Assembly (NCBI GenBank): GCA_051294905.1
Contig: CM119371.1
Location: forward strand, 14,882,001-14,946,000
From: Botryllus schlosseri
Lineage: Eukaryota
Direction of reading: 5' to 3'
Length of the DNA stretch: 64,000 nt
Made by a program: the position numbers and the translations under genes. Below, piece by piece: positions 3,402 through 49,350 of this stretch. Positions within the stretch are counted from its first letter, which is position 1. Every line of letters begins with the position of its first letter. The notes beneath the pieces are model-generated. The model was not told the DNA's origin, ran no database searches, and worked only from the letters and a program-made list of their open reading frames with translations.

Positions 3402-5006
3402 ATGCAGGTTGTTTGTCAGGATGTGGCGACGCATGCTGTGAGGATGCTCGAGGAATTACATCGAATGAAGCAAGATCATGATCATTGTGATTTCATAATC
3501 CAAGTCGGAGATGATGTCTATCGTACACACAAAAATGTATTGTCGGCTGGTTCCGCTTATTTTAGAGCCATGTTGAAGTATGATACGAAAGAGAGTCGCG
3601 ACAGAAAAGTCGTTTTGAAAGATGTGGATTCTTAGTGTGTGAAAAATTGCATCGATTTTATATATTCGGGTAAATTTGAGATTCCTGATGGAAGAATCAT
3701 TGAACTTCTTCACGTCGCAATTATGATGCAGCTGGATGATGTAAAGCAAGCCGTATCCAATATTTTGGAGGAATCAATCACCATTGTGAAATTACTTCTC
3801 TACCAGAAATGTTGGTGATTTTTACGGACTGGCGGATGTTTCTTCGAGATGCAGAATATTTTTACAAGAAAATATCATGGAAATCTCAGACCAAGCTGGA
3901 TTTGAAAGCATTGAAAAAGATGACCTTCTCAGTCTTTTGCAGTCAGGAAAACTGAAATTATGGGAAGAAGAAAAACTTGCATTATCGCTCAAATGGATCT
4001 AGAAATGTCAAAGTAAAAGCGAATATTTGCACGAATTTCTCAAAGTAATCAAGTTTGATCTAATATCCCCGGTATATTTGCAACAGATTTTAGAAACTCA
4101 CCCAGGTATAAGTAACGACTTCGACCTCTACAAGTTATTCAATGATCATATTATGGAATCTTCCGCTAAGAAAAAAGAAGATAATGACGCTGACAAATTG
4201 ATAATTCTTTTCGATGATGACGCAAAATGCCTCCGATCCTTGAATCCAATAACTGAGGAAATAGAAAAGTTCCATGATGTAACGTGTAGTTTATCGTTGA
4301 ATTCGACAGCAATTTCCCTTGACTCGTATATTTATGTATTTCGTGATTTTAGATCTGTTAATCGACTCAATTTTCAGACGAAAAATTCAAAATGGGAAAA
4401 AGTGGGTGATCTGATTTGCAACCATGGGAGGTCTCCATGCTCAGTGTGTTCAACTGGATCCATAATCGTTATTGGAGGAAGTAGTTTAACAGAAACAACT
4501 GATGTAGAAAGATTTGACCCATCGGTAAATCAATGGTTTCTACTAGGAAACAAACCGTCAGCCATTTCTAATGCAAGTCTCGTGTCTTTGGATGGTTCCA
4601 TCTATTGCATCGGAGGTTGGCGAAAGGGTGTCGAAGTTTCTTCGTTCTGCAGATTTACTCCATCCTTATCAGAGTGGGTTGATCTGGAACCCATGAGCAT
4701 CCTGCGGATTGCTGTTGTGTTGTTGCAGTTGATCAAATGATATTTGTGACCGGTGGGTGGAATGGAGAAAATACCACCGATGATGTGGAATGTTACGATG
4801 CTACTGCAGCTCAATGGACTACTTTGTCATCCATGATTTCATGTCATGGCGACAATACTGCTTATCGCATCGGCAATTGGATTTTTGTAGTGGATGTACT
4901 GGGAGAATCTGATGAGATTGAAAAGTACGATTTGTTGAACAAAAAATGGTGTAGGATGAAAGATAATGATACATTTTTCAGTGTCTCTGGATCTGCCATG
5001 GTGAAG
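3402..5006 (+). pseudogene. BTB-BACK-Kelch pseudogene copy B
   Basis: BTB motifs HCDFIIQVG and HKNVLSAGSAYFRAM. TAG at 3633-3635 (CAG in paralogs), frameshift ~3790, TAG at 4000-4002, frameshift ~4698. The normal stop is replaced by unrelated sequence after GSAMVK. Confidence 0.93.
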
Positions 5007-5489
5007 TGGGATGCTCTAACGTGGACTAAAACCCCCTGAACCCCCACCGTCAGAACTGCCAGATTGTTCTTTTGCACAACCTCTGTGTCAAAACTATGGC
5101 CATGTATTTTGGCGCTGGGAATGGTTCTATAAATTCAATGATTAATATCAATCTCGGGTTAATGGACATCAGAAAAGTGCAGATTCGGATATTGAAATGC
5201 TTTAAACAAAATGTGGTTTAGTATTCTTCAAAGTCCTATCTCGTACAAAATTATCCTTCCTACTGTAGTTCGCTGTGAAAACTTGGGTGATATAAGTAGC
5301 CTATTTTTAATACTGGAATTCGGATTATTATCAATTTCAACTCTATTCAAATGGAGCAAGTTTCGAGTCCAAGTCGAAGTTTGCTCTGGAATTGCTACCA
5401 TTTATCCATGCGGTCACAGGAATGACTTAAAGATCTTTTTTTTTTGGCGACCGCGCGATCGAGCTCGGCCATTTATTAATTTTGCTTCG

Positions 5490-5636
5490 GGCAATTTGAT
5501 TTTTGTAGTGGCTAGATTTAGAGGTTCCGATGTCATTGAGAAGTACGATTTATTGAACAAAAAATGGTATAGAATGAAAAAAGCTGATGAATTAATTAAT
5601 CTCTGTGGATCTGCGATGGTGAAGGAATATGGTTGA
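5490..5636 (+). pseudogene. Orphan 3' fragment of a kelch-like copy (last blade plus stop)
   Basis: GNLIFVVARFRGSDVIEKYDLLNKKWY...GSAMVKEYG*, followed by the same 3' flank (aggaggacgc...) as copies A and G. Confidence 0.85.
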
Positions 5637-11246: not shown

Positions 11247-12596
11247 GAGAGAGAGAGCAAATTCCTCCAATACAAAACGGACTGCTTCTGTGATACGTAA
11301 TATCAATAGTTGATTTGCTACGCACACAATTCACTATACCACTTGTGCTAGTAATTAAAAAGGGATTTGGATGCATTTAGATCACAGCATTCACTACGAA
11401 ACAAATAGTTAGAAATCACAAGTGGTTTCAATACTCAACGCATTATGGAAAAATGTCTATAGAGCAACGAAAAATCTATCAATGATCTTGCCTCGGTCGT
11501 AGATTCGTAGTTCATTGTTGCTTATTGTACAGCTAACCCCATGCAGGCTAAATATTTGGTCTTTTCCGTATTCCTGTCTTCATTCAGGTAGATGTTTTCT
11601 ATAACAAGTAAAAGAGGTTAATGTTGATGATTTTGTTCCACCTTTTTAATTAACTGGCTGCAATGGGAAATGTTAATTGAATGTCTCTGCAATTTTCGAA
11701 AAATGTGTGGTTGTATTCAATTGTGAAATCATCAATCAATATTAAAGTACGGTAGTTTGTTACCGGCAGTTATCAATGCAGGTTATTTTGTCGATATGAA
11801 TGATTTGTGTGTATTTTGAAAACAGCACTTTGCTGATAAATTGGTAATTCTTTTTGATCGGTACAACAAATGCCCCCGGTCCTTAAATCCAATGAATGAA
11901 AAAGTAGGAAGATTTCATGATGCAAAGTTTGACTTCTGGTATTTCACAGCGATTTCCCTCAACTCATATATTTATGCCTTTTGTGGAGACAAATCTGTTC
12001 ATCGACTCAATTTCCGACAAAAAAATTCCAAATGGCAAAAATAGATGATATGATTTGCAAGCACGGGGATCTTCCTCGCTCTGTGTCATTGTGCGGAGCA
12101 ATATTTGTTATTGGAGGAAGTAGCACACAATCGAATGATGTGGAGAAATTTGACTACTCTGAAAATAGATGGTTTCAACTCCAAAACAAGCCTCTAGAGC
12201 AATTTGTAGAGCAAGTCTTGTATCATTGCACGATTCTGTGTATTGTGTCGGAGGTTGGCGAAATGGTTTTGAAGTTTCTTCCTTCTGCAGATTCACTCCA
12301 TCCTCGTCAGAGTGGGTTGACCTCGAGGCAATGCGATATCCCGTGTGTGGGTGTGGTGTTGTGGCATTGGTCAAAATATATTTGTGATCGGTGGGTGGAG
12401 TGGACGAAAGAAAGTCAATACCGTGGAATGTTACGATGTTACTTCATCTCAGTGGACTTCATTGCCATCTATGAATTCATGTCTTAGTTTCATTAAGCTT
12501 AATACATCGGCAATTGGATTTTTGTGGTGTTTGTGGTTGTGTTTAAGGTGCATAGTATAACAACTAGTATAACAACTGGCTGCTCTGCAACTTGAT

Positions 12597-13442
12597 ATGG
12601 ATCCAGAGATATCAAAGAAGCTGAAAGAAATAACCAAACAACTTGCAACTAAAATCGACAACAGCGAAAACCGTTTACTCAAGAAACTTGTGCAGGAACT
12701 AAAACCTCTGGTGGAGAGAAGCGTGGAAAACCATCTTGATTCTGCTATCTCCAAAAATCAAGACGAAGACACCAATGCCATCAGTTTGCTCCATGATAAG
12801 ATGGATCATATAATTCATCAAAAAAAAGAAACAGAAAATAGTCTATACGAAATAAAAGGATTTCAGGACACTTTGAAATCCAAACTGGAAGCCCAGGACA
12901 CTAGGCTGAAAGAATTGGAATCAAAAGTTGAAGCAATCACTCTGGACAATCAGAAACTGAGAGGACTACTCCACAGCAATCGCCAAATGATCGACCAACT
13001 CGAACAGAATCAGCGGAACGATTCCTTGGTGATCAGTGGATTACCTGAAAAAGAAAACGAAAATTTGCAAAAAGAAATAATTGATATCGGAGGAAGGATT
13101 GGACTGGATATCCAACCCAGTGACTTTGAGTGCTCTTACCGACTCAAACAATCGTCGAAAACTGCAGACAAACAAGCTCCATTGGCTCTCATAAAGTTCA
13201 GAAACTCCAAAACCAGATCACAACTCCTGCAAAAAAGAAAAGAACTTCGGAGCATCCACGATAACTTGCCTGGCTTTAAGAATCTCTACATCAATGAAAA
13301 CTTGACCAAGTTCAGAAGAGTGCTCCACTCAAAGACTCGCAAGCTGGGTAAATCTCTAGGATACAAGCACTGCTGGGTGGTCAATGGTAAAATTTTTCTC
13401 GGAACACAAAATCTATTTTCATCGATTCTTACGAAACCCTAG
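12597..13442 (+). CDS. LINE ORF1 (coiled coil plus RRM-like region)
   Basis: Heptad-rich N-half; motifs LEQNQRNDSLVISGLPE, YINENLT and WVVNGKIF typical of LINE ORF1 proteins; probable frameshift near the end. Confidence 0.85.
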   Translation: MDPEISKKLKEITKQLATKIDNSENRLLKKLVQELKPLVERSVENHLDSAISKNQDEDTNAISLLHDKMDHIIHQKKETENSLYEIKGFQDTLKSKLEAQDTRLKELESKVEAITLDNQKLRGLLHSNRQMIDQLEQNQRNDSLVISGLPEKENENLQKEIIDIGGRIGLDIQPSDFECSYRLKQSSKTADKQAPLALIKFRNSKTRSQLLQKRKELRSIHDNLPGFKNLYINENLTKFRRVLHSKTRKLGKSLGYKHCWVVNGKIFLGTQNLFSSILTKP

Positions 13443-13496
13443 AAAAGCTGCGTAACGACGCTTAAATCATTATTTTCTTGTCGAGCATTTATCTTT

Positions 13497-16485
13497 ATGT
13501 CTTCTCCAAACGAAATCAATGCTGACGGTTCCCCAAATTTCCAGGATATGCAATACCCAAATATTAGTGACTGTATTGTGACTACGCGTGACCATTTATT
13601 GCCTATTTTAAGTCAAATCCAAGAATATGAACATTTTACAATGATTCACCTCAACATAAGGTCCTTGCCTTACCATTTGGATGAGCTGAGTGATTTGATT
13701 GCTAGCTTAAAGAGTATACCTTGCTTGATTGCCATATCGGAAACTAAGCTAAAAGGTGAACCGAATACCTCAATTGATATCAACGGCTACTACTACCTAA
13801 ATTCTCCAACACAGGGACTGGCTGGTGGTGTAGGACTTTACCTAAAGTCCTATATCAACTCCGAACAGGTTCATGAATATGACTTGTAATGCAGTGGTGT
13901 TGAACAAATATGGGTGGAAATTTCTAATCCTCGAATTAGAAATGAGCATACTGTTGTTGGTGTCATCTATCGTCACCCTAACTTCAATATTTCAGAATTC
14001 ACAAGTTAACTCAGTAGTACTCTCAACAAACTGCAGCAAAGAAACATCCAATTTTTCATAATGGGAGACATAAATATTGATCACCTATCAGATTTAGCGC
14101 CGCACCAGGACTATCTCCTTATGCTACGATCTAAAGGAGTTGCATCCGTTATTTCAAAACCCACTAGAGTCACAGCTACCTCTTCCACCATTATTGATCA
14201 CATATACACCAATCTTTCCATTATTAATATAAGACCTATGATGTTAGACTATGTTATGACTGATCACTACCCTGTTGTAGCTCAGGTTAAGTTGTCAAAA
14301 AAACGTCAAAAATATAATATGCAACCGATATACCGGCGCAGTATGCATTCTGAAGCATGTGAACTTCTGACGGATGATGTAGAGGAATTCTTCTGAACCA
14401 ATGAACTTCCCAGTCTTTGCCATGGCAATTTCAATCAGTCATTCGAACATTTCTTGTCAGTAGTGAAGATACTAATCGATCGACATATGCCTCTACAAAA
14501 ACTGAGTAGAAAAAAAAGAAAATTGCTGTTGAAACCTTGGATAACTGCCAGTATTCTTAGGGCCATTAAAAAACGAAATAGTCTTCATAGAAAATGGATA
14601 TCACTAGGCTCAGACGAATCCAAAATTGAATACCAAGAGTATGCCAAAGCACTTTCCAGGATCAAAGCTAAAGCAAAACGGACGTATTATTATCAGCTGT
14701 TTCACAGAAATAATACCAATCCTAAGCAAACCTGGAAAACTATCAATAGCATAATAAATCGTCCTTCGGCTAAAGGTTCACTGCCAACGACCATTACAAA
14801 TGAGCAGGGGGTACCGACTTCTAATTCTCACGACATAGCCTCCTTATTCAATAAACATTTCTGTTATATCGGTAATAACCTAGCATCCAAAGTGCCGCCA
14901 AGCAATGATTCCCCTACAGCAGCTATTCGCAGTGTTACCAACTCGATACTTCTCTCTCCGACCACAGAAGAGAGATTATCTTAGCGTACTCACTCAAGAA
15001 TGACAAAGAGGGATGTGATCGAATTCCTATTAAACTACTGAAATTGATTTTTCTTTTGGTCTCTAGACACCTGGTCAATTTTTTCAACAGTTCTATTTCA
15101 TTAGGGATATTTCCAGATGCATTGAAGGTTGCCAAGGTTGTCACTATTTTCAAGTCAGGTGATAAAAGCAATGTCAACAACTACCGCCCCATATCTATCC
15201 TACCATCCTTGTCAACAATTTTTGAAAAGCTACTATATCGACGACTTACCAGCTTCCTCGTTGCTCACTCTGTCATATTAGACAACCAGTTTGGCTTCCG
15301 ACAAAATCTTGACACAAATCAAGCAATTCTTGCCCTTACTTCCAAAATTTATCAGAGACACAACTCTGGTATGATTTCATGTGTTGTTTTTCTTGATATA
15401 AAAAAGCTTTCGACACTGTCAATCATTCAATACTTATAAGTAAACTCTCGTGTTATGGAATCAGAGGTGTAGCCTTGGATTTGATTACAAGCTATCTTAC
15501 CAATCGATGTCAATATGTTTACAGTAAGGATCACCTACCTTCTGAAAAGAGTGACATATTATGTGGTGTACCACAGGGCTCCGTTTTAGGACCCCTATTA
15601 TTCAGTCTTTATATCAATAATGTTGCTGCATGTATCTCGGAGACCTCGGTCCTATTTGCTGATGATACTTGCGTACTTATATCTGCTACAGACTTGACCT
15701 CTCTACAAACCAAAGCTAATTCCAAGATTTGCAAGATGACTGCTTGGATGAAAACCAACCGACTAACCATTAATCCAACTAAGACTCAGGTACTGGTCTT
15801 CAATTGTAAAGCTGCCTCAACTTTTTCACTAAGTGTATCTGATGTCATTATTGCACCCTCAACCCATACAAGATATCTGGGAATTATCATTGACTCCAAT
15901 CTTAAATGGAAGACCCACATTTTCAATCTATGTAAAAAGCTATCTGCTACGGCCGGAATTCTAGCGAGACTGAGACATTCTCTCCCTAGACAGACCTTGA
16001 GAACCATATATTTCTCATTATTTCACCCTCATCTGCTTTATGGATTATGTGTATGGGGGAAGGCCAATCAGACGGATTTTAACAGAATCTGTGTCATCCA
16101 AAATCGAGCCATAAGAAATATATGTGGCATAGATTCTAGGTCATCTGCTACTCCTGGTTATTTAGCTCTCAGGAAACTTAAGCTACCCGATTTGTATAAT
16201 TATGAAATAGCCAACCTGATGCATAAATTCACAAACGGTAATATCTCCCCTTACTTTATTAGCTTGTTTGAGCAATCTTCCACTGTGCATGGGTATTCTA
16301 CTAGATTATCGAAATCTGGTCATCTTTATGTTCACCGTATGAACTCCAGACTGACCCAACAGTCCATTGAATATATGGGCCTAAATATTTGGAATGACGT
16401 GCCCGACAGTATCAAAGAGCTACCTTAGCATGAATTTAAAACCCAATACCAGGATTACCTTTTTTCAAATTATAATCAGAAATGA
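13497..16485 (+). pseudogene. LINE ORF2 (AP endonuclease plus reverse transcriptase), disrupted
   Basis: HLNIRSL, ISETKL, GDINID, IDHIYTN, TDHYPV (APE); NYRPISILP, QFGFR, GVPQGSVLGPLLF, FADD, YLGI (RT). Stops at 13887, 14394 and 16426; frameshifts at ~14975 and ~15400. Confidence 0.93.
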
Positions 16486-16879
16486 GAGTATCTACTATCT
16501 AGTACCCGTTGTAATATAAATTATACATCTATTTATTGACTTCATATTGCTTTACCTAGTATGTTGCCATGGCTACTGTCTTTGTTATATATTTGTGTTT
16601 ATTTTCTTCTATTTGTGATTATTATTTTCTTTCATGTTGCAGACTGTCCACTGTTATATTTATTGGGATGAGTGCACTTGATTATTTCACTGCCATGGAG
16701 GTGACGAGTAACAAGGCCTTTATAGGCCATATCGTCACCTCCAGTCAACTTTTTATGTTTGACGAAGCAATAGAATGTCTGTCTGTCTGTCTGTCTGATT
16801 GGTTTGGCGATTCTTCTGACATTGAGAAGTACGATGTATTGAACAAAGAATGGCATGGCATTGAAAAAAATGAAGATCA

Positions 16880-24634: not shown

Positions 24635-24753
24635 ATGGTGCAGATTGTTTTGCAACATGTGAAGGGACGTGCAGTTAGTATGATGAAGGAGTTACGTCAA
24701 ATGAGGCAAGATCAAGATCATTGTGATTTCATAGTTCCAGTCTGAAATGATGT
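24635..24753 (+). pseudogene. Orphan 5' fragment of a kelch-like copy (BTB start)
   Basis: MVQIVLQHVKGRAVSMMKELRQMRQDQDHCDFIVPV*ND, immediately upstream of copy E. Confidence 0.85.
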
Positions 24754-24878
24754 GATATTAATTATGTGTGTATTTTGACTCCTATTGATTCAATATCTGC
24801 TATCTTTGCTTTTGCAGCATATCTATTGTAGCCTAGATTGTACTATTATTTATCCTTGAAGACTGGTTGGTGGTGACG

Positions 24879-26682: not shown

Positions 26683-26868
26683 CAATATTCCCTCTAATTT
26701 TGACGTGTCTGCGCACACTCACCAACTCACTGTGCACACAGATCCTTGAAAAACAGTGCGTAACAACAAAAAAGTTCATCACTTCGGATTTTTTGTGCGC
26801 GACTTAGATTTTCTGTGCACAGAGACCGTGAAAGCACTGCGCACGTGCGCAGCTTAGAGGGAACATTG
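26683..26868. mobile_element. Small hAT-type MITE
   Basis: TIR caatattccctctaa / ttagagggaacattg; TSD gtagcaag/gtagcgag. Confidence 0.85.
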
Positions 26869-32651: not shown

Positions 32652-32756
32652 CATACTTGGACAACTAGATTATTGTAGTCTAATTGCACTAAATTAGAGC
32701 GAAATCCCAGTAATCTAATTAGAAAAAGCTGAAAATTTTCTAATTGTCCAAGTCTG
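32652..32756. mobile_element. 105-bp MITE; related copy at ~50042-50153
   Basis: TIR catacttggacaa / ttgtccaagtctg; degenerate TSD cacgcagg/aacgaagg. Confidence 0.7.
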
Positions 32757-32886
32757 AACGAAGGAGTGTATTTTGTCGAATGGATCCGGATTGTGATTTC
32801 GCATGGAAAGTAGGAGACTAGCAGGATTTTCCACTGAAGTATGAGACATTAGTATGATATCAGCCGGCATTTTTTAGACTCTAAAC

Positions 32887-34045: not shown

Positions 34046-34195
34046 CTCTAAACCCTTCAGCCAAAATGTTTCGAATACTGAATTTAAAATGGCAAGCCGG
34101 AGCCGGGTGGATTCAGAAATTTTCGAGTGAGACCATCTCTGCTCTACACGATGTCTCAACCGTTATTAACGGTTTTATCAGTTAAGCGTCTATAC

Positions 34196-35796: not shown

Positions 35797-35867
35797 GTCT
35801 ATACTATATTTGTTATTACATTTGCTTTCACTGTGTTGCTGTAATCATAGCCATGCCGCAATCATTA

Positions 35868-38160
35868 GGCCCATTTACATGACGGTTTAAGTCAGCTTCG
35901 AAGCTGACTCGTCGATCCGACTATCTCGTATTTGATGAAGAGAGAAAGGCAAACTGCTTCAAGTCGACTCGAGCCTCAAGCCGTCGTGTAATGTGGTTTA
36001 CGATCGGCTTGAGTATTCGGCCATCGGCGTCCGACGATTTTCGTTCGACGGCGCTGGTTTTTGCCGCGCGGGCTCTTGGCATCGTAATTCATGTTTTTCA
36101 TGTGTTGTTGAGAAATTGGGCAAACATGGCAAGGAAAGGTGGGGTTACTTTGTAAGTGCTCGCTTGTTTACGATGGAATGCATGTAATAGGGGAGATGTG
36201 GTACCGATGGATCACTGGGACCGAAAATACTTTGAAAATTCTATATGATAATTCCATGATTACACTCCGTGAACTTGTCCACAATTGCTTGCTGGCAAAA
36301 TCTTTCCTCACATACAAAAAAATTCGACGTGCGCGAGCTATGGGGTCTCTCACAGATGTTTTTTGTTTTAGGGGTGTTAAGTAAATTTATATCGACATAT
36401 GCATTTTTCTTTGTAACCTTCAACACGAACAAACCAGCAATCATTTTTATTGTGAAGTGCAGGGCTTGTATCAGGCTATATAATGGCACCTATTATTTTT
36501 TTCAGTACTTTCCTTGAGTGGAATTTTTTTCGATTCATGTGTAAAATTCGTAGGGTGGGGACCGGTGATACAATAGCCAAATCAAGCAAAATAATCAAGC
36601 ATACTAATCATAAAACAAATGAAACATGCCTACGTACAGAAAATCTTTATGTAATAATTGCATATGATGTTTTATCGCTATAACGAGGTGTTTGGAAGTC
36701 ACATTGTCGATTTTCGGGCAATATGTATGTACCCTCAAATTTATAAGTCCGAGCCTAAATCGAAACGTGATTTTATGACAACATTTGAGTTAATATTTAT
36801 TCTATTTCTTGACGGTTGCGATCAAACATTCTTCTTTGGCTTACTGCAGCTTAGATTATAATGCTGAACAAGAAAAGTTGTCATATCTGAGGTATTTAGG
36901 GTATATGTGTCTTAGGTCCCCGGGTCGTGTGCCATTGGACCCACCGGGTGGGGACCGATGACACGTTCGAGCAACAAATTTTGAACGTCCAAAAATATTT
37001 TTTGAAAAAGACGGATTTCATGTATATGTGCGCGATAGCTAGAGCTTGTATCAAAGTGCTGAGCCAGGAAAAGACCTGCTGTTTTCGGCTGAACATCTTG
37101 GGGCCAGCGATCATTTTCCAATTTATGATCCATCGGTACCACATCTCCCCTACACCAGTACCGGTATAGCAACTGTGCTCTGTATTTCTACTTCTCAGAC
37201 TACAGATCGAAAGATATGTGGATTGTACCGGTATATACAATTCGACTACGACATGCATATGCATAGTAAACCGATTGAAGAAACGGCTGTGCAGTGTGCT
37301 ACATCGACACGGGAATACATGAATGATTGCTGCATTTCGTACATACTGTTCCACTGGCTAAACTGATGTGAGCGCGCGTGTGATGGGGGAGCTGGTGTCT
37401 CTCCCGTGAGGATGATATGGAGATTTGTGACTCTCCTGGTGATGATGAAGCGCAGCGGTGTTGGGATTATTGCTTTGTTTTTAGTTCTGGGTTATAGTGA
37501 TCTGCTGACAGTTTTTATAGACATTCTTGGTATTGTTTACTTCCTATTTGGTATCTCATGCCGACAAGATGCTTCAATTAAGTCTTTGCAGTAGTTGCTG
37601 TATCGTGATTCTTGATCGAGTCATCCGCATACATGGGGTAGTCTGTTACAGAGGAGCGGCCGAACATCTAGCTAGAGGCCGCATATGGGTTTTGCAAGTG
37701 GGTCACTTGAGTGGCGATGACCTTATATTAATCGCATCGACAAGTGATGCCTGAAATATCAATACAGTCGTTTCTCCCGCCTACTCCACGGCCCATCTTC
37801 GTTGACGCCGAAAAAGCTAGCTGATTACTTATAGGCTACTTATTGTTTTCCTTTACAATCATGACATGAACAAGAGTATTTTCCTCTACAAATATCGATA
37901 TTAAGAGTATCTCATCATCCTCGTTAATTTCGAGAATAAGAAACGTTTCAGAGTACGACCAAACACACATTGTCGTTGTACCTTAGCCCACCAGACACTA
38001 CGAAAATATTTGTAAGGGTTAAAGCGACACCCGGTCGTCCACGATACCGCTTCCTGAAGGATCATGTAAACGGGCCCTTTTACGAGTCAGCTCGGAGATG
38101 AGGCGTGACGTCACCGGAGACGACTTGAACGCCAAGTCGAGTCGAACATGTAACCAGGCC
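35868..38160. mobile_element. Possible PIF/Harbinger-like non-autonomous element
   Basis: Left end tta|ggcccatttacatg; right-end candidates catgtaaacgggcc (~38063-38076) and catgtaaccaggcc (to 38160). TSD imperfect. Confidence 0.5.
36190..37150. mobile_element. Tc1/mariner-pogo-type MITE
   Basis: Perfect 25-bp TIR ggggagatgtggtaccgatggatca flanked by TA on both sides. Confidence 0.9.
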
Positions 38161-38985
38161 TATTGATTTACTCGCTGGTTGACTAATAAATGAATTCTCT
38201 CTTTATCTCTATCTCCCTCTCTCACGCGCCCGACAATAAACAATAACATTGAGTAGGAGAACACGCTGCTAGCTGATGGTATCGAGTTGTAATGTTTATT
38301 CGACAGCCAATCGATGTTTATGGTGGCTTGTAGTAGTTTTTTTCTTGTATATATATTGGTCTTGCAGTAAAAGAAGCGATGAACGTACGGGCCGCGTGTC
38401 ACAATGTAGAACACTCTTTAGTGTGATATAGAGTCAACAGAGCTCACGGTCTACTTTCGTTTTATCCTATTTTAAGATGTTGCAAGTGTTATATACTAAA
38501 CTGTCTGAAAGCAAGCCTACAACTTGTTAACGACGTTTAGGACCAATAATATATGAAAACTAGACATATTTTTAGGCAAAATTTGACGAAATGTTTCGCT
38601 TTCATCACTATTTGAGAGTGAAGTAGATTATTTCAAAGTCAAATTTATTTAAGAAGAAATCCAGTTGTCCAAATCAAGTTGGTGGTGAATTAAATAGAAC
38701 TTGGCCTTGCAGAAACTTTAATAGAACAATGTGTAACAGGAAACTTCAGGGTTGACTTTGCAGGAGAACCACTAGTAGGCTTACCGCCTACGCATTGTTA
38801 GAAATTATTAGACTGCTTGTATTTTTACTTAGTTTTACATTGTATCAGTGATAGGCTATTTGAATATTTAAATGTTGTTGAATCAGTCTAATATTGAATA
38901 TGAACCCAGTCCGATGTGGTGTAGGCTGACATGTGAAAATTATTCATGGTTAATGTTCAATCTTTAGGCCTTCTACTCTAATAAT

Positions 38986-40320
38986 CAGGACTGTGGAGTC
39001 ATGACTCCATTCGAGTGGCAAATTTTTAGTGACTCGACTTAACTCGAGTCATTTTCTCAAGAGATGGAAAATGACGCGACTCAACCTGAGTCAATCTGTG
39101 CATTGACTCGACGTGTACTCGAGTCATTGCACATGCCTCGGACCAAGTCATATGACTCGAGTCTCGAACGGCCAATACTGACATTACCGCACCATTGCTA
39201 TTTTGTCTACTAGTACTGGTAAATGAGATTGCGACCAGAAACAGTTAAGAGTGTTGAAAACTTGTATATATACCAAGCCATATTACCGTAATTTTCCATG
39301 TATAATCCGCAAAATTTTCACGATTTTTTGCCCTAAAATCGGGGAGTGCGTATTATACATGGGAACAACACGCTTGAAAAAAATCTCCCTCGATAAAAAA
39401 CTTGAAATCACACCTTTCTTCATGTTTGTTTCCAATCGCCCATCACTTTCAGCCATCGTGCCCAGTAATTCGTATTATCAGTGTAACCACTACCAATTAG
39501 CAAAAAGCGTGTTGCCAATTAATGAGAGTCGTCTGCACAGCACGCAATCTCCTGCCGAGTTGGTTTGCCGTTTGCGCTCGAGCGAAATTAGGTCATTCAT
39601 TGATTGCTGAACGTGCGCGCGGCAATCCTCGCTGATTCATCGACAGGCAATGTGCGCAAAATATAATCGCTTGCGTAATCAGTCGCACCTCCAACAGGCG
39701 TGGTGTGCACGACATAACCGTTGGCCTGAGCAATCGCATCTGACTTCGTGCGCAAGATGTCGCGTCGCAGGCTTTGGCTGCTATCTACTATCGTACAGAG
39801 ACAATACCGTTACTTGTATAATGATTAGCAATCGCATCTGTAATAGGCCTCGTGCGCAAGACCTCGCGTCGCTGGCGCGAACTATCGCGTTGCCAGCCTT
39901 GCAGGCTTTGGCTGCTCTGTACTATCGTTTAGAGACAATGCCGTTAATTGCATAATGATTAGCAATGGTTATGTCATGATTGTTCGCCAGTGACATCGCA
40001 AAACAGAACAACATCGCGTACTAAAACACAGCTATTCATGTACTGTGAATGCAGGGTGAGTACTATACATGGGTACAGGCTTTTTTCCAGAATTTGCATG
40101 CCATTTTAAGGGTGCGTATTATACATGGGGGCGTACTATACTTGGAAATTTACGGTACTCGAGACTCAAGACGGCCAAAACCGGCATTTCCTTGTGATTT
40201 CGAGGAGAAGTCAAGTAACCACACTCTTGGGATTTCGTCTATTGGTACTGGTACTTGAAAATGCGACCAGAAACTGCTAAACGTAAGGAAAATTAGTATA
40301 TTATAAATTCGAACGATTCG
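38986..40320. mobile_element. GACTCGAGTC-family MITE remnant hosting a nested element
   Basis: Left end caggactgtg; segments match 6580-6880; right boundary approximate. Confidence 0.65.
39286..40155. mobile_element. Tc1/mariner-pogo-type MITE
   Basis: TIR ccgtaattttccatgtata / tatacttggaaatttacgg with TA TSD. Removing it restores a host motif similar to ccaagtcatatgactcgag at ~39143. Confidence 0.85.
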
Positions 40321-40885
40321 ATATCACCAAACAATTATAAAACTTACGGCATTTACACAATTCACTATACCACTTGTGATAATATTTCGAAAGGGTTAAT
40401 GAAACGTTTGGATCACAGCATCCACTACCAAACGAATAGTTAGAAATCACAAACGTAGCTTCAATACTCAATGTATTATGGGAAAATGTCCATCGGTCAA
40501 AGAAAAATGGAAGAATGATCTTGCCTCGATCATAGTTTATGCTTCTTCTACAGCTAGGTAACTCAACCCTTGCTATAAGTATTTTTTGTTTTCTGTTTTC
40601 ATTTCGTCATTCAGGTAGATGTTTTCTGTAACCAGTCGAAGAGGCTAATGTTGATGCTTTTGTTCTACTCTTAGAATTGACTGACTTCTATTTGAAAGTT
40701 TCGAAAATGTGTGATTGTATTCCACTGAAATTATCAATATTAACGTAGGTGGTTACCGGCAGTTATTAGTGCAGGTTATTTTGTCGATATGAATGATTTG
40801 TGTGTACTTTGACTCTAACCATGTGTATTTTAAAAACAGCACTATAATCTATAGAAATATCCTTGACAAGTTATTGGTTACCATT

Positions 40886-42197
40886 ATGCAGGTTGTTTGT
40901 CAAGATGTGGCAAGGCATGCTGTGAGGATGCTCGAGGAATTACATCGAATGAAGCAAGATGATGATCATTGTGATTTCATCATACAAGTCGGAGATGATG
41001 TCTATCGTACACACAAAAATGCATTGTCGGCTGGTTCCGCTTATTTTAGAGCCATGTTGAAATATGACACAAAAGAGAGTCGCGACAGAAAAGTTGTTTT
41101 GAAAGATGTGGATTCTCAGTGTGTGAAAAATTGCATCGATTTCATATATTCGGGTAAATTTGAGATTCCTGATGGAAGAATCATTGAACTTCTTCACGTT
41201 GCAATGATGATGCAGCTGGATGACGTAAAGCAAGCCGTATCCAATGCTTTGGAGGAATCAATCACCATTGAAACTGACCCACGTCTAAGTAACGACTTCG
41301 AGCTGTACAAATTGTTCAATGATCATATTATGAAAGCCTCCGTTAAGGCAAAAGAAGATAATGACGCTGAGAAAATGATAATTCTTTTTGATGATGCCGC
41401 AGAATGCCTCCAATCCTTTAATCCAATAACCGAGGAAATAGAAAAGTTCCATGATGCGGAGTTGCATTTCTCGTTGCATTTCACAGCTATTTCCCTTGAC
41501 TCATATATTTATGTCTTTTCTGAATCTAAATCTTTTCATCGACTCAATTTCCAGAGAAAAAATTCAAAATGGGAAAAGATGGATGATATGATTTATGACC
41601 ATGGTATGTCTCCAAGCTCGGTTTATTTAACTGGATCCATAATCGTTATTGGAGGAAGTGGTTATGCAGAAAAAGCTGACGTCGAAAGATTTGACCCATC
41701 TGTAAATCAATGGTTTCTACTTCGAAACAAACCATCAGCAATTTCTGATGCAACTCTCGTGTCATTGGATGGTTCCATCTATTGTATTGGAGGTTGGCGA
41801 GATGGTGTCGAAGTTTCTTCATTCTGCAGATTCACTCCATCCTCATCAGAGTGGGTTGATCTCGAGCCAATGATATATCATGCTGATAGCTGTGGTGTTG
41901 TTGCAGTTGATCAAAAGATATTTGTAACCGGTGGGTATAGTAAAGAAGATACTGTCAACAATGGTAGAATGTTACGATGTTACTTCGGCTCAATGGACTT
42001 CATTGCCATCTATGAATTCATGTCATGGCAACAATACTGCTTATCGCATCGGTAATTTGATTTATGTATTGGATGCTTTTGGCGGTCCTGATGTGATTTA
42101 GAAGTACGATTTATTGAACAAAAAATGGTAAAGAATGAAAGAAGCCGATAATCCAATCTATATCTGCGGATCTGTCATGGTGAAGGAGTATGGTTGA
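40886..42197 (+). pseudogene. BTB-Kelch copy G with an in-frame deletion of BACK
   Basis: EESITI joins ETDPRLSND at ~41270 (~100 codons missing). +1 frameshift at ~41963; TAG at 42099-42101. Confidence 0.9.
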
Positions 42198-42364
42198 AGG
42201 AGGACGCGGTATATTGTAAAGTGAACTAAATACCTATGTGAGTAGACTAATGTTTAAACATGCTCTGTTGAACTTGGAATAAGTCTCAGATCTGCTGAAG
42301 CTTCAAAGAGATGTTTCATTGTGTTTGAAACGCCGTTTTGTTGTAGTATGATCTGGTTGTACCT

Positions 42365-42722
42365 TAGAGGTGTAAAAAAAAACCTTTTTTTCATATTTCA
42401 TCGGCTTAATTGTCAAATCGCCAGGTTACCTAAAAAACATCGCACATCAAATTTGACTCAATTCCAACCAGTAGAAGCAGAGGTCAGTAAAATTGAAATT
42501 TCGGTCATTTTTGAAATAATAGTATTCACGATGACCAATTTCATCACACCGACATGACCAAAAATCGTGTTCTAGGTATACCTGAAGAGGCAGGGATGTC
42601 TTTTCCACTTGCTTTGATCTTGTCAAGGTCCTATGGTGGAGTTTGGGTGAAGACATCGCCAATAAACGAAAAAAAGATATGACACGGATTAGCTGGAACG
42701 GAAGTTTTTTTGAACACCCCTG
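42365..42722. mobile_element. hAT-type MITE in the 3' flank of copy G
   Basis: TIR tagaggtgtaaaaaaaaac / gtttttttgaacacccctg; TSD ttgtacct/ttgtacac. Empty site seen at ~579-590 after copy A. Confidence 0.75.
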
Positions 42723-43012
42723 TTGTACACATCTATTTGGAGACTGCTTCTTTGAGTGATAAACTTATTATTTGTTGATTAGATAATGACCATTCGTCTT
42801 TGCATCTGATGGATCTGGCGTCTCTGATTATAGAGCAAATTTTTGCAACTTTTTTTTTACAGCTTCCGCTAGCTTTCTAAATACTCAGAATTTATGTAGT
42901 ATGATGTTTTAAGCTGTTTGAAGGAATTTTACATTGCAACTTTCTCTTTTTTTTCATGCTACTTCAGTTCTTGTTCTAGTTTCGGATTTCAGAAAGTTGG
43001 TAGTTTTAGTAT

Positions 43013-43198
43013 TCATCTATGAATTTTTGTTGTTGTTTTAATACTGCTTATCACATTGGCAGCCGTATTTTTGTATTGGATAAGTCTCACTCGTTTGACA
43101 TTAAAAAGTACAATTTATTGAACAAAAAATGGTATGGCAGGAAAAATGAATCAGGTGCAGTTTTCTACATCAGCGGATCTGCAATTGTGAAGCTATAA
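43013..43198 (+). pseudogene. Orphan 3' fragment of a kelch-like copy
   Basis: SSMNFCCCFNTAYHIGSRIFVLDK...DIKKYNLLNKKWY...GSAIVKL*. Confidence 0.85.
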
Positions 43199-43807
43199 AC
43201 TGTCCCTTCAATTGAATGCCTCACGAATCTTAGCAGGAGAAGAGGTATTTTAATAGGCCTACAGCTCAAAACCTCCGAGAATACTGTGTAAACATGTATT
43301 CTTGAACTTTGAATAAGTGGTTATTATTCATATTAGAAACACGGTAGTAACGTTATTCATTGCGATTGTGTATCAATTATATGACAGATCAACGAGATCA
43401 CCGTACAGCTCCCTTGAGTGAGAAAATTGTTGATTGTTTTAATGACACATTTTAGAGTATCATTTAAATTATTTGAATGACCGAAATGAAGTTTTTTTCA
43501 GGTGACACTTTGTCGCATTTTATTTGAATCAATCGAATCCAACCTTAAACCCCAACTGTATTTTACATCTAGCCTGAGGTGGCCAAAATGGAAAAGGTGA
43601 GTAGTTTTGCCGACAATCTGTTCAAGTATAAGCAGTCCATAACATGATCACTCGAGTAAGTAATGCATAAAGACGAAACCTACTCTAGTACTAGAAAAAA
43701 ATTGCAGTACTTCGTTACTGACCATCTCTGGCTATATGTTCTTTAAGCTGAATAGCCAACATTATTATGAGCATATCAGCCACAATTCGAATGTGCTTTA
43801 CCATATC

Positions 43808-45853
43808 TTATCGGTAGTTTCCAATTATTGCCTACCGGTACTTGATTCCCCGTTGGGTACGCACTGTCAGCGTATGTAGTTCTGTTAGTATGTGATCAGT
43901 TGTCTGTTGCTTAAGGTGTTGTGTCTTTCGTTGTCGAATTTGAACTGTACGTATTGTGTATTTCATTTCTGTCCTGTTACAGAATTAGGTGAATAAAGCC
44001 TATTCCTAGGTCCGAACAATTTATTAAACTTATCCGATATTCATGATTATGACCTTGCCATTGGTGATTTGAAAGAGATAAATGTGAAGCAGAAGAACAC
44101 CATTGCGGACTGGCATGAATTACTGACTTGAAAACAACTGCCTGGCGAGGCTATGGACAGTTCTGTCATTCGACTGCAAAGACTGCGGGCGGGTGCTGGG
44201 CAGTTTCAGCTGAACACTCTTGGAGGTGATTTACGATGCCTTGATTGCAAGATTGCAATCGGCACCAATTCGCCAGAGACTTGTGGAAGAAAGCGCGTTG
44301 ACTTTCGGTGATGCCTACTAGAAGGCGCACACAATGGAAATCACTTCTAGGGATTCCGAAACTTAGCAAATTACTTCATCATGTGTCACAAGTATGCATG
44401 CGCGGAGACGACAAGGTGGGGATGAAACCCAGAATTAAGGTGGGAGCTCTCATCGAAAACCGACGTTTTCGAAGCGGATTTGTTTGTTTTGTGCAGATTC
44501 TATGCATCCTCGTGAATTGCCTGGCAAGAGATGCCGTACACTGATATTGTCAGATCACTGGCCACATTACTGGAAGTTATGTCAATATCGCCTACGAAAT
44601 CTTCCGCGTATCAATACGGTAAGCGCCTCAATACATGGCCCTGTATATCCTAGCACATGAGAAATAGAATTTGACCCGCGAACAACTGTATCAGCTACGG
44701 ATCGGTCAGAATGCAATGTTGAGGTTGTCAATTTGAACCTTCTTCATTGATGGATACTGGTCCTGGGGAATGTTTCATGTATCAACAATTTGGTGACAAA
44801 TATGGAGAAAAATTGAACATCCAGCCAATCGTTGGCGAGACTTCTATATGTGTGCCGATTGAAGGTTAATGCCTTGCTCGACACACCATGGGGAGTAACG
44901 ACCATCGAAATGTTTCATTCCACATACTGAAGAACTTTGGGACTGACGTCATCATCGACGAAAGAATATTCAAGGAACACAAAAGAGTCACATTCACGTT
45001 TTCGGGACCACGGACTCCGCTCACTCTTACCTTATCAAAATAGGCAGTTCCGTATCCGAAACCGTTCATAGTCACTTTGGCCAAGATACTCGCCCAGAAG
45101 CGGACAAGCTACGGAGGTACTTGCAGTCAGATCTCCCTTCATCGCAGAAGAAACGCAACGTCTGCTTGCTGACAATCTTATCGAGCCAAGTAATTCGCCT
45201 TGGAGAGCTCAGGTAGCTACTTGTTGTCAGAAACAAACATTCTACCAATCGACGAATGGTCACTGGTCAGTGAATACTGCTGGAGAATTGACCAAATCAC
45301 TCAACTTGACACCTATCCTCTGTGCCACGCATCTAGTATATTGTGAATAAGCTTGCTCGACAAATGGCGCCTCCATTCCGTCATAGTTGAAGCTTGAGAC
45401 CATGTCCTATTTACGTCAAGCGACATGAAGGATGAGCCCTTGGTGGACGATGCGGAGCTTCTCAAACCATACCCTGCTTACGCCCATGTCCGACTTAACG
45501 TCGGCAGATAAACTATGGTATCGGTTCGGGATATGTCAACACGCAGTAACACCGACGAAACTGGCGGAGCAGAATTTGGTAACTACAGCGAAGATTGTTC
45601 GGGTGGACAACTCCCTAGCAAATACGCCGCCATTCGTAATGACGCCATTGCCACCAGCACCGAGGACGGAAATAACGAAAATACGAACATTGAGCCTGAA
45701 AGACCACCGTTTCGTCTTTCAACGCGTGCTCGGAAGGCAGCAGATCAATACGACGCAGTATGTATCTATTATTGACAACGTATCACACCCCCGTAATTGG
45801 TTCCTGTTGAGTACGCACACCCAACGTATGTAGTCCTTTTAGTATGTGATCAG
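43808..45853 (+). mobile_element. Gypsy LTR-retrotransposon remnant 2 (5' LTR ~43808-44018, gag, protease, RT start, integrase tail, partial 3' LTR)
   Basis: LTR core gtacgca...cgtatgtagt...ttagtatgtgatcag at both ends; AATAAA then ...CA. Gag QSAPIRQRLVE and zinc-knuckle relic; protease LMDTG (~44750); IEPSNSPWRAQV. Confidence 0.85.
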
Positions 45854-46629
45854 AAGGGCGATTTTTCGTTACCTGAAAACGATATATTTTGAGCTGGTAG
45901 GAACATGTGCTTTCAATTTCAACTATTTTGGAATAACCTGAGCAAAAAGCGGATGAGATATCTCAATCCACTGTCGATTCTGTTGTGTTCGTGAATTCTT
46001 GTGAATTTACTTTCTATAACTCTTTTATAACTTGATGCTTATTTCATGTTAAAGTTTATTGCTTGACTGTCTTGTATTATCTGTCATGTGTCAATTGTGT
46101 CATTCATCTTTATGAGCAGTTTTTTGGCGATGAACCATTTTTCACACTCGTACACCTTCTTCAATTCAATGGTGTTGTCTCACTGCGTTCCTCTTCCTAA
46201 ATTGCAGGTCCAAATTTTGTTTCATTTCTATTCGTTTTCTCACAGGAATTGAAACTAGCGATATTCTAGTGTAAAACCGTGTCCCAGCTCCGCTGTATGA
46301 TTTGAAACAGAATTTTTAGATTGTTGGACAAGATTCTCCTGATTCGAATGGATTGATTGTTCGACAGTTTCATATGCTCAAAAATCAGATCCCGCTTAAC
46401 ACGGAAACATGAGCATACGGAGATGTCATAGGTCAACTTTCATAACCGATTGGCTTTATTAGTCTTCGTTTTTCCAACATATGGATGATTGCCCAATGCC
46501 CATCTTATAGCAGTAGCTGGTCTGTCGTTAAGCCATGTTAATAACTGTAATTAGCCGAAGATATCGACAGTACCCTACTCTGAAATTTTTTGATTTTGAC
46601 ATGGCACCCTGGTAAATGAGTGTCTACAG

Positions 46630-47447
46630 CAGGGGTCACCAACACGCGGCCCGCGAGGTCATTTTTTGCGGCCCGCGACTTGATTTGAGATTTCGGAAGA
46701 AAGCTAAGAAAACATTTTGAAATGCTGAAATTGACGTTCAATGGCCCAAACACTCCCACGACCAAGACGCTTAGAAAATGGCTTAGGGCAGTGGCTCTGA
46801 AACCTCCCTTGTGGGGGCGCGAAAGTATCTGAACGGGTCGTGAAGCTGCGGTCAACTGAAAAATTTTTCGCGCTCCACGCGATTTACGTCGGATCTGTGG
46901 TTACAGTTATTGGTCTGCTGTATATAATCCGGAATTCATATTATAAAATTCTCTCATTAACATTCATAACCTTCCATGCCACCTAACTATCTGTTGGGAT
47001 TGTAAGTATTATGGATGCATTTTGTGATATGACGATAAGGGGCGTGAAATTTTTCAGTATCATAAAGGGGGCATGTCTAAACAGGTTTAAGAACCACTGG
47101 CTTCGGGCATCCGCACACGATCAAGCTTTACGTGGAGATGGTCTATCAGCTAGTAATGTATCTCGCTAGCCCCCAGAAGCGTTTCCAGGTATCTTGCACA
47201 GCTCAGAGTTTAAGATAAAATGAAATTGATGACAGTGATCCTTTGTTGTATTTTTATTCCTTTGATAAAATATCACTTCTTTTGTCGTCATTACACCCTT
47301 CGCCTATGTTCGGTAGCACAGCGTTGTACTGACGTAGAGTTTTAAAACGTGGTTGCCTACTTGATATCGATAGTAAATTCATGCGGCCCGCGGCCGCTTG
47401 GAAATTTGAAAAGTGGCCCGCGACCCGTTTTGAGTTGGCGACCCCTG
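46630..47447. mobile_element. hAT Charlie/Buster-like MITE with nested MITE 46789-47099, upstream of copy H
   Basis: TIR caggggtcaccaac / gttggcgacccctg; perfect TSD gtctacag. Inner TSD gcttaggg/gcttcggg. Confidence 0.9.
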
Positions 47448-47748
47448 GTCTACAGTGTCTATCTGCTTTCACCAAGCTCCCTGAAGTTGGTTTTTACTGC
47501 AAATCTTGACATTTTGATTAGCACTCAGAAGTCAGTTTTGACCATTTTCTTGTCCATTCATTGGCTCTATGCTACATGCATCACTATATCGTAATGTTCC
47601 AGTTGATATGTACTGTACAGTTCATATTGATTTGGCCTATTCTGACTCATTTCATGGGATACGTGTGATTATTCATGTTTACTGCCAAAACAGATTATGT
47701 CTTCAATTCTCTTTTATACAGCATATGCTTAATTAGTGACCAGCGATT

Positions 47749-49350
47749 ATGGTGCGAATGGTATGTTTGGATGCAGAAAAGCATGGAGCATCTATGATGG
47801 CTGAATTACATCAAATGAAGCAAGATAACGATCATTGTGATTTCATAATTCAAGTCGGAGATGATGTCTATCCTACCCACAAAAATGTATTGTCGGCTGG
47901 TTCCGCATATTTTAGAGCGATGCTGAAACACGACACAAAAGAGAGTTGCGAAGGAAGAGTCGTTTTAAAAGATGTGGATTCAGAATGTGTCAAAAGTTGC
48001 ATTGATGTTATATATTCGAGTAAATTTGAGATTCCAGATGGAAAAACCATTGAACTTCTTCACGTCGCAATTATGATGCAGTTGGAAGATGTGAGAGATG
48101 CAATATCCGATATTTTGGCAGAATCAATTACTGTTGAGAATTACTTCTCTACAAGAAATGCTGGTGATATTTATGGACTGGTTGATGTCACATCAGGATG
48201 TAGAATATTTTTACAAGAAAATAGCATGGAAATCGCAAATGAGGCTGGATTTGGAAGCGTTGAAAAAAGTGACTTCTTAACTCTCTTGAAGTCGGCAAAA
48301 TCAAAGTTATGGGAAGAAGATAAATTAGTTTTAACGCTCAAGTGGATCGAAAGATGTGGAAAGAAAGAAAATTTGTATGAATGTCTAGAATTGATTGAAT
48401 TAGTCGAAATCTCTCCTGTGTTTTTGCAAGAACTTCTGGAAACTCACTCCATTTTCAAGCGCGATTCCAAGTTGCATGATTTGATCAGGAGCCATATTCG
48501 GAAAGCATCAGTTGAACTGGTAAAAAAGAAGGAAATGATAATCCTTTTTGACAAGGATACCGATTGTATTCGATCCTTTAATCCCATTTCTGAGAAAATA
48601 ACCAAGTTTCACGATGCAAAGTTTCGGCATTTCGATTGTTTTGAAACAATTGTTCTCCACCAGTATATTTACGTTTTATGTCAGAATAAATCTGTTCACC
48701 GGCTCAATTTTAAGAGAAAAAATTCAAATTGGCAAAAGATGGAAGACATGATACTTGACCACGGGCGGTTCCCTTGCTCAGTGACATTGTCAGGATCCAT
48801 ATTTGTCATCGGAGGCAGTATTGACAAAGAATCAAACGGTGTTGAAAGATTTGACCCCTCTGTAAATAAATGGATTCAACTGCAAAAAAGGCCTACAGCA
48901 ATTTGTGATGCAAGCCTTGTATCACTGGATGATTCCATTTATTGTATAGGAGGCTGGCGAGATGATGTCGAAGTTTCTTCATTCTGTAGATTCACTCCAT
49001 CCTTGTCACAGTGGGTTGATCTTGAACCAATGGGATATACTGTGTGTAACTGTGGTGTTGTTGCAATTGATCAAAATATATTTGTGATTGGTGGGTCGAC
49101 TTACGATTCTAGCATAGATATTGTTAAATGTTACGATGTCACCTCGGCTCAGTGGACTTCATTGCCATCTATGACTTATGGAAGTTGCAACACAGCTTAT
49201 CACATCGGCAACTGGATTTATATAATGGAAGATTACAGCGAATCTTATTACATTGGGAAGTACGATTTGATAAACAGAAAATGGCATAGAGTGGATGGCG
49301 GTGCAGATCAATATTTTCTACTTCACGGATCTGCAATGGTGAAGGTATAG
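47749..49350 (+). CDS. Intact kelch-like protein (BTB-BACK-Kelch, 533 aa), copy H; putative Cullin-3 substrate adaptor
   Basis: Single uninterrupted ORF: BTB (HCDFIIQVG, HKNVLSAGSAYFRAM), BACK (ITVENYF...LKW), kelch repeats (IFVIGG...VERFDP...W). No one-to-one KLHL orthologue is recognisable by eye. Confidence 0.95.
   Translation: MVRMVCLDAEKHGASMMAELHQMKQDNDHCDFIIQVGDDVYPTHKNVLSAGSAYFRAMLKHDTKESCEGRVVLKDVDSECVKSCIDVIYSSKFEIPDGKTIELLHVAIMMQLEDVRDAISDILAESITVENYFSTRNAGDIYGLVDVTSGCRIFLQENSMEIANEAGFGSVEKSDFLTLLKSAKSKLWEEDKLVLTLKWIERCGKKENLYECLELIELVEISPVFLQELLETHSIFKRDSKLHDLIRSHIRKASVELVKKKEMIILFDKDTDCIRSFNPISEKITKFHDAKFRHFDCFETIVLHQYIYVLCQNKSVHRLNFKRKNSNWQKMEDMILDHGRFPCSVTLSGSIFVIGGSIDKESNGVERFDPSVNKWIQLQKRPTAICDASLVSLDDSIYCIGGWRDDVEVSSFCRFTPSLSQWVDLEPMGYTVCNCGVVAIDQNIFVIGGSTYDSSIDIVKCYDVTSAQWTSLPSMTYGSCNTAYHIGNWIYIMEDYSESYYIGKYDLINRKWHRVDGGADQYFLLHGSAMVKV

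Follow-up and report, generated by a model that had tools for sequence, protein, structure and literature searches.

Likely diversifying selection on the predicted target pocket of an expanded BTB-BACK-Kelch family in the tunicate Botryllus schlosseri

Vertebrate genomes carry ∼40-60 KLHL genes, which are mostly single-copy and conserved. In nematodes and plants, the MATH-BTB and F-box families are said to have been described by Thomas in 2006 as expanded, adaptively evolving Cullin adaptors, and their expansions are read as the intracellular recognition of changing targets. Here, we describe a family of BTB-BACK-Kelch genes in Botryllus schlosseri, seen in a stretch of 64,000 nucleotides (GenBank assembly GCA_051294905.1, contig CM119371.1, positions 14,882,001 to 14,946,000 of the forward strand; hereafter, the window) that holds eight main BTB-Kelch copies, A to H, all on the + strand. 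In intact members of this family, a few B-C and D-A loop positions, contributed by all six propeller blades, evolve with a ratio of replacement to silent change (dN/dS, or ω) above 1, which we read as likely diversifying selection on the target pocket of predicted CUL3 adaptors, with the window as a decaying slice of their tandem array; we place the probability of this reading at about 0.72.

Architecture and fold place these proteins with the KLHL and KBTBD families, while their evolutionary behaviour resembles that of the MATH-BTB and F-box expansions. Copy H (47749-49350) is an intact single-exon gene of 533 residues, with the same BTB-BACK-Kelch order as the CUL3 adaptors KEAP1, KLHL12, KLHL22 and KBTBD2 (∼540 residues). 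It encompasses a BTB domain at residues 21-125 (47809-48123; Pfam PF00651, E = 1.3e-19, 70.9 bits against a cutoff of 20.5), a BACK domain at residues 135-230 (48151-48438; PF07707, E = 1e-06, 29.2 bits against a cutoff of 20.9) and a six-blade Kelch propeller at residues 262-533 (48532-49347), the latter found by Pfam (Kelch_1, E = 2.4e-27), structure prediction and Foldseek; a profile search of the PDB with H returns KEAP1 at the top (E = 7.6e-61). The AlphaFold2 (AF2) model of H, built on an alignment of 23 paralogs, has a mean predicted local distance difference test score (pLDDT) of 79, a score that over the Kelch domain is mostly ∼85-94 per 10-residue block (range 71-94), and shows a helical BACK domain followed by 24 strands in six four-stranded blades, of which blade I is closed by the C-terminal strand; the GG doublet is kept only in blades III-V. 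At the top of the Foldseek matches stand chains from CUL3 complexes, KBTBD2 and KLHL22 (KBTBD2-CUL3 first, E = 5e-28), which match the full length of H, and the propeller superposes on the Kelch domains of KLHL12, KEAP1 and KLHL3 with template-modelling (TM) scores of 0.79-0.84 over ∼290 columns, at a root mean square deviation (rmsd) of ∼3 Å (KLHL12: TM 0.83, rmsd 3.2). Compared with these KLHL and KBTBD proteins, however, H is only 14-24% identical over the structural alignments.

By homology, the proteins would bind CUL3 through the BTB domain and the 3-box, and the variable face of the propeller would, as in KLHL proteins, bind substrates. According to Canning et al. (2013; PMC3597819), the D-A and B-C loops, on the upper face, shape the substrate pocket of KLHL Kelch domains, and it is in these two classes of loops that the variable positions of the Botryllus proteins sit. 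A mapping of residues onto KEAP1 contacts by hidden Markov model (HMM) alignment was rejected, as the register shifts between repeats, and we therefore used strand and loop topology instead: Kelch residues were classed as strand or as A-B, B-C, C-D or D-A loop from the strand list of the model, and the face shared by the B-C and D-A loops was assigned from strand order, according to the up-down topology of the blades.

Because six of the eight copies in the window are broken, selection was tested on intact paralogs from the same genome. In this genome (495.5 Mb), a first look gave 517 candidates, so that the family comprises at least several hundred matches. All of the 81 candidates that were scored are near full length and 73 of them have no internal stop; they cluster on contig C1 at 6.5-7.6, 13.8-15.7 (the window's own cluster) and 35.9-36.2 Mb, and near-identical recent pairs occur elsewhere in the genome (L034/L035, L046/L053 and L067/L069). 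Unlike vertebrate KLHL genes, these genes are single-exon, arranged in tandem arrays and represented by hundreds of matches, with a predicted pocket that appears to be under positive selection. Outside the genome, the best named match is a 'kelch-like protein 28' of Styela clava, at 29-30% identity, and three further assemblies gave matches at 39-51% identity. A full-text literature search found no account of a BTB-Kelch expansion in tunicates, and the only Botryllus match mentions a single 'Kelch-like protein 10' transcript.

From the 81 scored matches we drew a sample of 61 intact genes, with 11 scored matches left out. Dropped before the 61-gene analyses were L004, L011, L012, L015, L019, L021 and L027 (longest frame <520 residues), L056 (frame not recovered) and L060 (start-setting motif unmatched). 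Tests of selection were run on a set of 23 intact paralogs and on two clades that are independent of this set and shallower: clade Z, with 22 genes of the 6.5-7.6 Mb array, and clade W, with 6 genes of the 36 Mb array.

A sequence-only reading of the window had proposed that hypervariable loops of the substrate face sit on a nearly invariant propeller scaffold. The loops it quoted after the first GG (B SSLTETTD, C SSTQSND, D SDGTEKTD, E SYDPELNF, F SYLTTTRD, G SGYAEKAD, H SIDKESNG) and the residues after HG (RSPC, DLPR, IAPS, TYPS, MFPH, MSPS, RFPC) are all present, as are those after the third GG in copies A, B, D, E, G and H; that of copy C, WSGRKKVNT, is readable only in a third reading frame, because this copy is frameshifted. 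The flanks VERFDPSVNQW, CRFTPSSSEWVDLEPM and TSAQWTSLPSM are indeed near-constant, and over the 23 intact paralogs the mean pairwise amino acid identity is 0.30 in the three noted loops and 0.80 in the three flanks. "Nearly invariant" overstates the conservation of the scaffold, in which only 78 of 592 columns are invariant, paralogs are 58-93% identical to H and strands evolve at ω = 0.29. The eight copies are, with six of them broken, mostly pseudogenes, and copy A (3-419) falls outside the range of 4400-49330 given for them.

The three loops are also an incomplete account of the variation, as selected sites occur in every B-C and every D-A loop, six of each. The hot positions, in the numbering of H, are 269/270, 312, 359, 403/404, 450-455 and 495-501 for the B-C loops and 293/297, 340/341, 379, 433/434, 479/480 and 521-524 for the D-A loops, which gives two hot spots in each of the six blades: the first residues past strand B, at the position of the GG, and the final ones ahead of strand A. 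Residues 340-343 (RFPC; 48766-48777) form the D-A loop between blades II and III, with residue 340 selected in every data set; residues 357-364 (SIDKESNG; 48817-48840) form the B-C loop of blade III, where residue 359 is selected; residues 403-404 (48955-48960), both selected and absent from the sequence-only reading, follow the second GG in the B-C loop of blade IV; and residues 450-458 (STYDSSIDI; 49096-49122) form that of blade V, with 450, 453 and 455 selected. All four stretches are on the + strand.

For the site models, the 23 paralogs were codon-aligned, columns with >20% gaps were removed (532 of 592 kept) and a GY94 tree was used; the models were fitted with custom code that reproduces the M0 likelihood of IQ-TREE (-19840.64). 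On the whole-gene tree, M0 gives ω = 0.40, and models that allow positive selection fit better throughout: M2a improves on M1a by twice a log-likelihood difference (2ΔlnL) of 138, with 5.0% of sites at ω = 3.0, M8 on M7 by 171, and M8 on M8a, where the extra class is fixed at ω = 1, by 104, with ω = 2.5 at 6.2% of sites. At P > 0.95, 19 sites are selected, 18 of them in the Kelch domain and all 18 in B-C or D-A loops; apart from residue 7, no site in BTB or BACK reaches this level. On trees of the Kelch domain only, M8 improves on M8a by 77 in the 23-gene set (ω = 2.0, 15.5% of sites) and by 204 in clade Z (ω = 4.6, 7.8% of sites), where ω is 4.6-4.8 across analyses, and over all sets this 2ΔlnL is 77-314. 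The site models therefore reject neutrality, with ω of ∼2-5 at 5-16% of codons.

The position of the selected sites is equally marked. On the Kelch-only trees, 22 of 22 (p = 3.6e-10) and 15 of 16 (p = 5e-06) fall into B-C or D-A loops, which make up 108 of the 272 Kelch codons, so that they are not scattered over the structure, and nine are common to the 23-gene set and clade Z (p = 2e-07). Strong purifying selection acts elsewhere, with ω of 0.2-0.4 over the BTB and BACK domains, the strands and the loops of the opposite face (BTB 0.27, strands 0.29, A-B and C-D loops 0.31) and 44 of the 124 BTB codons significantly constrained. Such a pattern is that expected of diversifying selection on one binding surface.

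Independent support comes from cross-validation, in which sites chosen in one set of genes were pooled and tested in another with free local rates of silent (α) and replacement (β) change. Sites from the 23-gene set give α = 0.86, β = 2.30 and ω = 2.68 in clade Z (p = 2e-06) and ω = 8.8 in clade W (p = 4e-04), whereas other Kelch codons remain at ω of 0.36-0.39. Sites from clade Z, in turn, give ω = 5.5 in clade W (p = 5e-04) and α = 0.67, β = 1.69 and ω = 2.53 in six shallow clades from the cluster that holds the window (p = 0.0044). When the 23 genes are halved, half X gives ω of 2.5-3.0 at the sites taken from half Y (p = 0.03-0.002). Counts on independent cherries, made without a tree, agree: in those of clades Z and W, the sites from the 23-gene set carry 114.8 nonsynonymous (Nd) and 11.2 synonymous (Sd) differences, a ratio of nonsynonymous to synonymous proportions (pN/pS) of 2.28 (p = 0.0024), while the rest of the Kelch domain stands at 0.38-0.39 in these cherries and in those of the window's cluster.

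Relaxed constraint only, in which the loops drift near the neutral rate, the differences within the window are partly pseudogene decay and there is no adaptive diversification, is difficult to reconcile with these values: the sites, chosen independently, exceed ω = 1 in intact genes of shallow clades, their pN is higher than pS taken over the entire Kelch domain (ratio 1.55, p = 2.5e-05 for clades Z and W; 1.32, p = 0.066 for the window's cluster), M8 fits better than M8a by a 2ΔlnL of 77-314 and the same nine positions recur in two clades. Nor is synonymous divergence, which by the sequence-only reading would speak against its claim if equally raised, elevated at these sites in the shallow clades, where α is 0.67-0.90 and pS on cherries is 0.07-0.09, compared to 0.11-0.14 in the rest of the domain. 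In young clades, the hot sites thus have normal silent rates and replacement rates two to three times higher. The proposal of dN/dS above 1 clustered on the top face stands for recurrent loop positions of the intact paralogs, though cross-validated sites in the deep set are at ω of 1.0-1.25 and whole loops are not significantly above 1.

Several results weigh against selection, and some of them are what relaxed constraint would produce. Taken whole, the loops of the sequence-only reading have ω of 0.90 in the 23-gene set, 1.25 in the shallow clades, 1.42 in clade Z and 1.90 in clade W, none significantly above 1, and all B-C and D-A codons pooled are at 0.64-0.93. Sites from clade Z tested in the deep 23-gene set give ω of 1.03-1.25 (p = 0.26 for 1.25) with α of 1.5-1.9, sites from half X of that set give ω ∼1.0 in half Y with a local α of 1.7, and in the cherries of the window's cluster the clade Z sites, with Nd of 43.3 and Sd of 4.7, reach a pN/pS of 2.04 that is not significant (p = 0.11). 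A per-site test of the fixed effects likelihood (FEL) type on the 23 genes finds 16 positive (p < 0.05) and 164 negative sites among 532; 11 of the 16 lie inside and 5 outside the B-C and D-A loops, and with the smallest p at 0.0038 none of the 532 passes Bonferroni correction, 23 sequences giving this test little power. Allowing synonymous rates to vary in a grid mixture cuts the support for β > α from a 2ΔlnL of 128.8 to 15.9. Our models, moreover, use fixed branch lengths, naive rather than Bayes empirical Bayes (NEB, not BEB) and one starting point, and the M0 likelihood is their sole check. With six of the eight window copies broken as well, these figures keep relaxed constraint in consideration, but set beside the cross-validation we regard it as an unlikely account of the hot sites.

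The last point of this kind concerns recombination. Over the 61 intact genes, trees built from the BTB-BACK region and from the Kelch region conflict in 21 split pairs with ultrafast bootstrap (UFboot) support ≥90, and sliding identity reveals mosaics. L010 matches L025 at 90-97% identity as far as about codon 250 and, from about codon 290 on, L029 at 86-93%, so that a break near codons 255-285 joins an L025-like BTB-BACK region to an L029-like propeller, and L005 tracks H until about codon 346, beyond which its identity falls to 60-80%, a switch of partner inside the propeller, near blade III/IV. Paralogs of this family therefore exchange gene segments. L010, L025, L029 and L005 are intact genes at 13.9-15.1 Mb of contig C1 (G000:C1), with the mosaics among them.

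Recombination can inflate likelihood-ratio tests made on a single tree, and since the paralogs recombine such tests are suspect here; we therefore repeated them on the Kelch-only tree and put weight on tests in which the same codons supply the estimate of the silent rate. Mosaic genes forced onto one tree, gene conversion or misaligned loops could mimic ω > 1 through spurious multiple hits, and the conflicting splits, the two mosaics and the sharp drop in support once synonymous rates vary are in keeping with such an artefact. A wrong tree, however, inflates silent and replacement change alike, yet the shallow clades combine α of 0.67-0.90 with β of 1.7-2.8; the signal persists on the Kelch-only tree, the tree-free pN/pS is 2.0-2.3 at hot sites against 0.38-0.39 elsewhere, and hot sites such as 340, 403 and 450 come immediately after an invariant HG or GG anchor, in an alignment cleared of gap-rich columns. 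We hold an artefact of this sort to be quite improbable.

Selection on new point mutations could also be confounded with a targeted mutational process that raises change in the loops, either local hypermutation or templated conversion from pseudogenes. Intact genes are surrounded by many pseudogenes, segment exchange between paralogs is real and the synonymous rate at hot sites is raised in the deep set (α of 1.5-1.9), but it is not in the shallow clades, and copies B, C, D, E and G share no tract of ≥97% identity over ≥120 nucleotides with the 61 sampled intact genes (drawn from a family of >500 candidates), the only high-identity tract of copy F being the 178-nucleotide tail of its own family. 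In that sample, the pseudogenes of the window were thus rejected as conversion donors, and we give a targeted process very little credence.

Diversifying selection on the pocket thus remains our preferred reading, and support for it is strong in the family as a whole and moderate in the cluster to which the window belongs; the copies in the window itself, mostly dead, provide none. Compared with the 6.5-7.6 Mb array, whose members are 57-60% identical to H, the cluster at 13.8-15.7 Mb is older and more heterogeneous, with several subfamilies side by side, and has a weaker selection signal, with most of the copies in the window broken.

In the window, a tblastn search with H (533 residues) as query locates the eight main copies and four loose fragments, all on the + strand, and only H and A are intact. 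Copy A (3-419) is the 3' end (residues 404-541) of L023, an intact gene of 541 residues (tblastn 100%) that begins before the window and whose frame is open without stops. The broken copies share from 76% (C) to 96% (E) nucleotide identity with their closest sampled intact paralog, and this part of the array is a mixture of wrecks, some old and some young, with one working gene among them. Copy B (3402-5006) is a full-length pseudogene in three high-scoring segment pairs (HSPs; frames 3/1/3). Its frame changes near 3785-3790 and again near 4695, and it has 87% nucleotide identity to its closest intact paralog; a C-terminal fragment (5490-5633, residues ∼491-544 only) follows it. Copy C (11820-12482) is a pseudogene fragment of residues ∼259-481 in four HSPs (frames 3/2/1/3), with three frame changes and its N-terminal half missing. 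Between copy C and its tail lies a degenerate retrotransposon (12573-16428, + strand), with open reading frame (ORF) pieces across several frames and RVT_1 matches in ORFs 14909-15439 (E = 2.7e-07) and 15397-16428 (E = 4.7e-20). Beyond it, copy D starts at BTB residue 17, joined without a change of frame to a Kelch tail (16797-16880, residues 498-525), and the two make up a chimeric pseudogene (16797-18393) with a frame change near 17170-17180; its junction is as expected from deletion or unequal exchange between adjacent copies.

After an N-terminal fragment (24629-24754, residues 1-42), copy E (L011; 24873-26504) is full length, with a single in-frame TGA at 25473-25475, a column that encodes Trp in its two closest intact paralogs, L007 and L009. 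The copy has 96% nucleotide identity to L009 and may represent a pseudogene of very recent origin, a null allele that segregates or a mistake in the assembly. Copy F is a pseudogene in two pieces, parted by ∼2.5 kb of inserted DNA: a 5' piece (27853-28041, residues 1-63) with 92% amino acid identity to residues 1-63 of L028, and a main piece (30516-31809, residues 74-457 and 482-541) with one frame change and an internal loss, the break lying near the 3' end; copy F has 95% nucleotide identity to L047/L028. The 5' piece of F begins 1352 nucleotides after E, in a block spanning 24873-28041, and the pairs L007+L047 and L009+L042, which are the closest relatives of E and F, stand in the same order as E+F, with gaps of 1349 and 1365 nucleotides, on the opposite strand and ∼240-270 kb from the window (G000:C1:15146695-15151273 and 15177038-15181638). 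It seems that the two genes of this block were duplicated together. Copy G (40886-42194) has lost its BACK domain (residues ∼144-227) and changes frame in blade V, near 41964-41983, and is either a pseudogene or a truncated gene. The frame 5' of its start codon (40793-40885, MICV..DSNHVYFKNSTIIYRNILDKLLVTIM) is conserved between copy G and locus L017, and the duplication unit therefore takes in the 5' flank. A C-terminal fragment of a further copy is found at 43013-43195.

Between the Kelch copies, 21376-22337 and 45072-45833 have similar frame translations, both with '...SPWWT.RSFS...LTPM...', the former with a reverse-transcriptase fragment at 21376-21654 (RVT_1, E = 1.2e-07), and both are probably remnants of one retroelement family. 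Four raw RNA runs aligned to 30001-50000 of the window fit only partly nearly throughout, with 0.95-0.99 of reads running on into unlike sequence. Over H, read depth is at most ∼1.5, in one run only and almost all as partial fits, and a search of the RNA run listing with H listed no run containing it. At 33300-38000, reads from three runs pile up on both strands to depths of up to ∼14, again almost all as partial fits; a dispersed repeat that is transcribed seems likelier here than a local gene.

Like the MATH-BTB and F-box families, the Botryllus genes combine a lineage-specific tandem expansion, a conserved module that is here predicted to dock onto a Cullin, many pseudogenes and positive selection concentrated in the substrate-recognition domain; unlike in those families, the recognition module is a Kelch propeller, not MATH or FTH/FBA. 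Selection on the loops may be driven by changing targets, such as pathogen, mobile-element or self/non-self proteins. A more speculative extension, doubtful at present, is that the family forms a germline-encoded set of intracellular Kelch 'receptors', hundreds in number, that share a constant scaffold for CUL3 docking and are diversified through positive selection at ∼twenty pocket residues and through swaps of whole or half propellers between paralogs; the set would serve innate immune, anti-mobile-element or self/non-self recognition through the ubiquitination of foreign or variable proteins.

The evolutionary pattern of the MATH-BTB and F-box families here appears on a Kelch propeller, in a tunicate. 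The window shows the turnover side of this family, with frameshifted, deleted, chimeric and transposon-split copies beside one intact gene, and its pseudogenes and retrotransposon insertion speak of birth-and-death turnover; the exchanged segments among paralogs suggest a reshuffling of recognition modules as well. If the proteins are real adaptors, they would offer hundreds of natural variants of one well-understood pocket, defined by ∼twenty selected positions that would be directly testable by binding screens.

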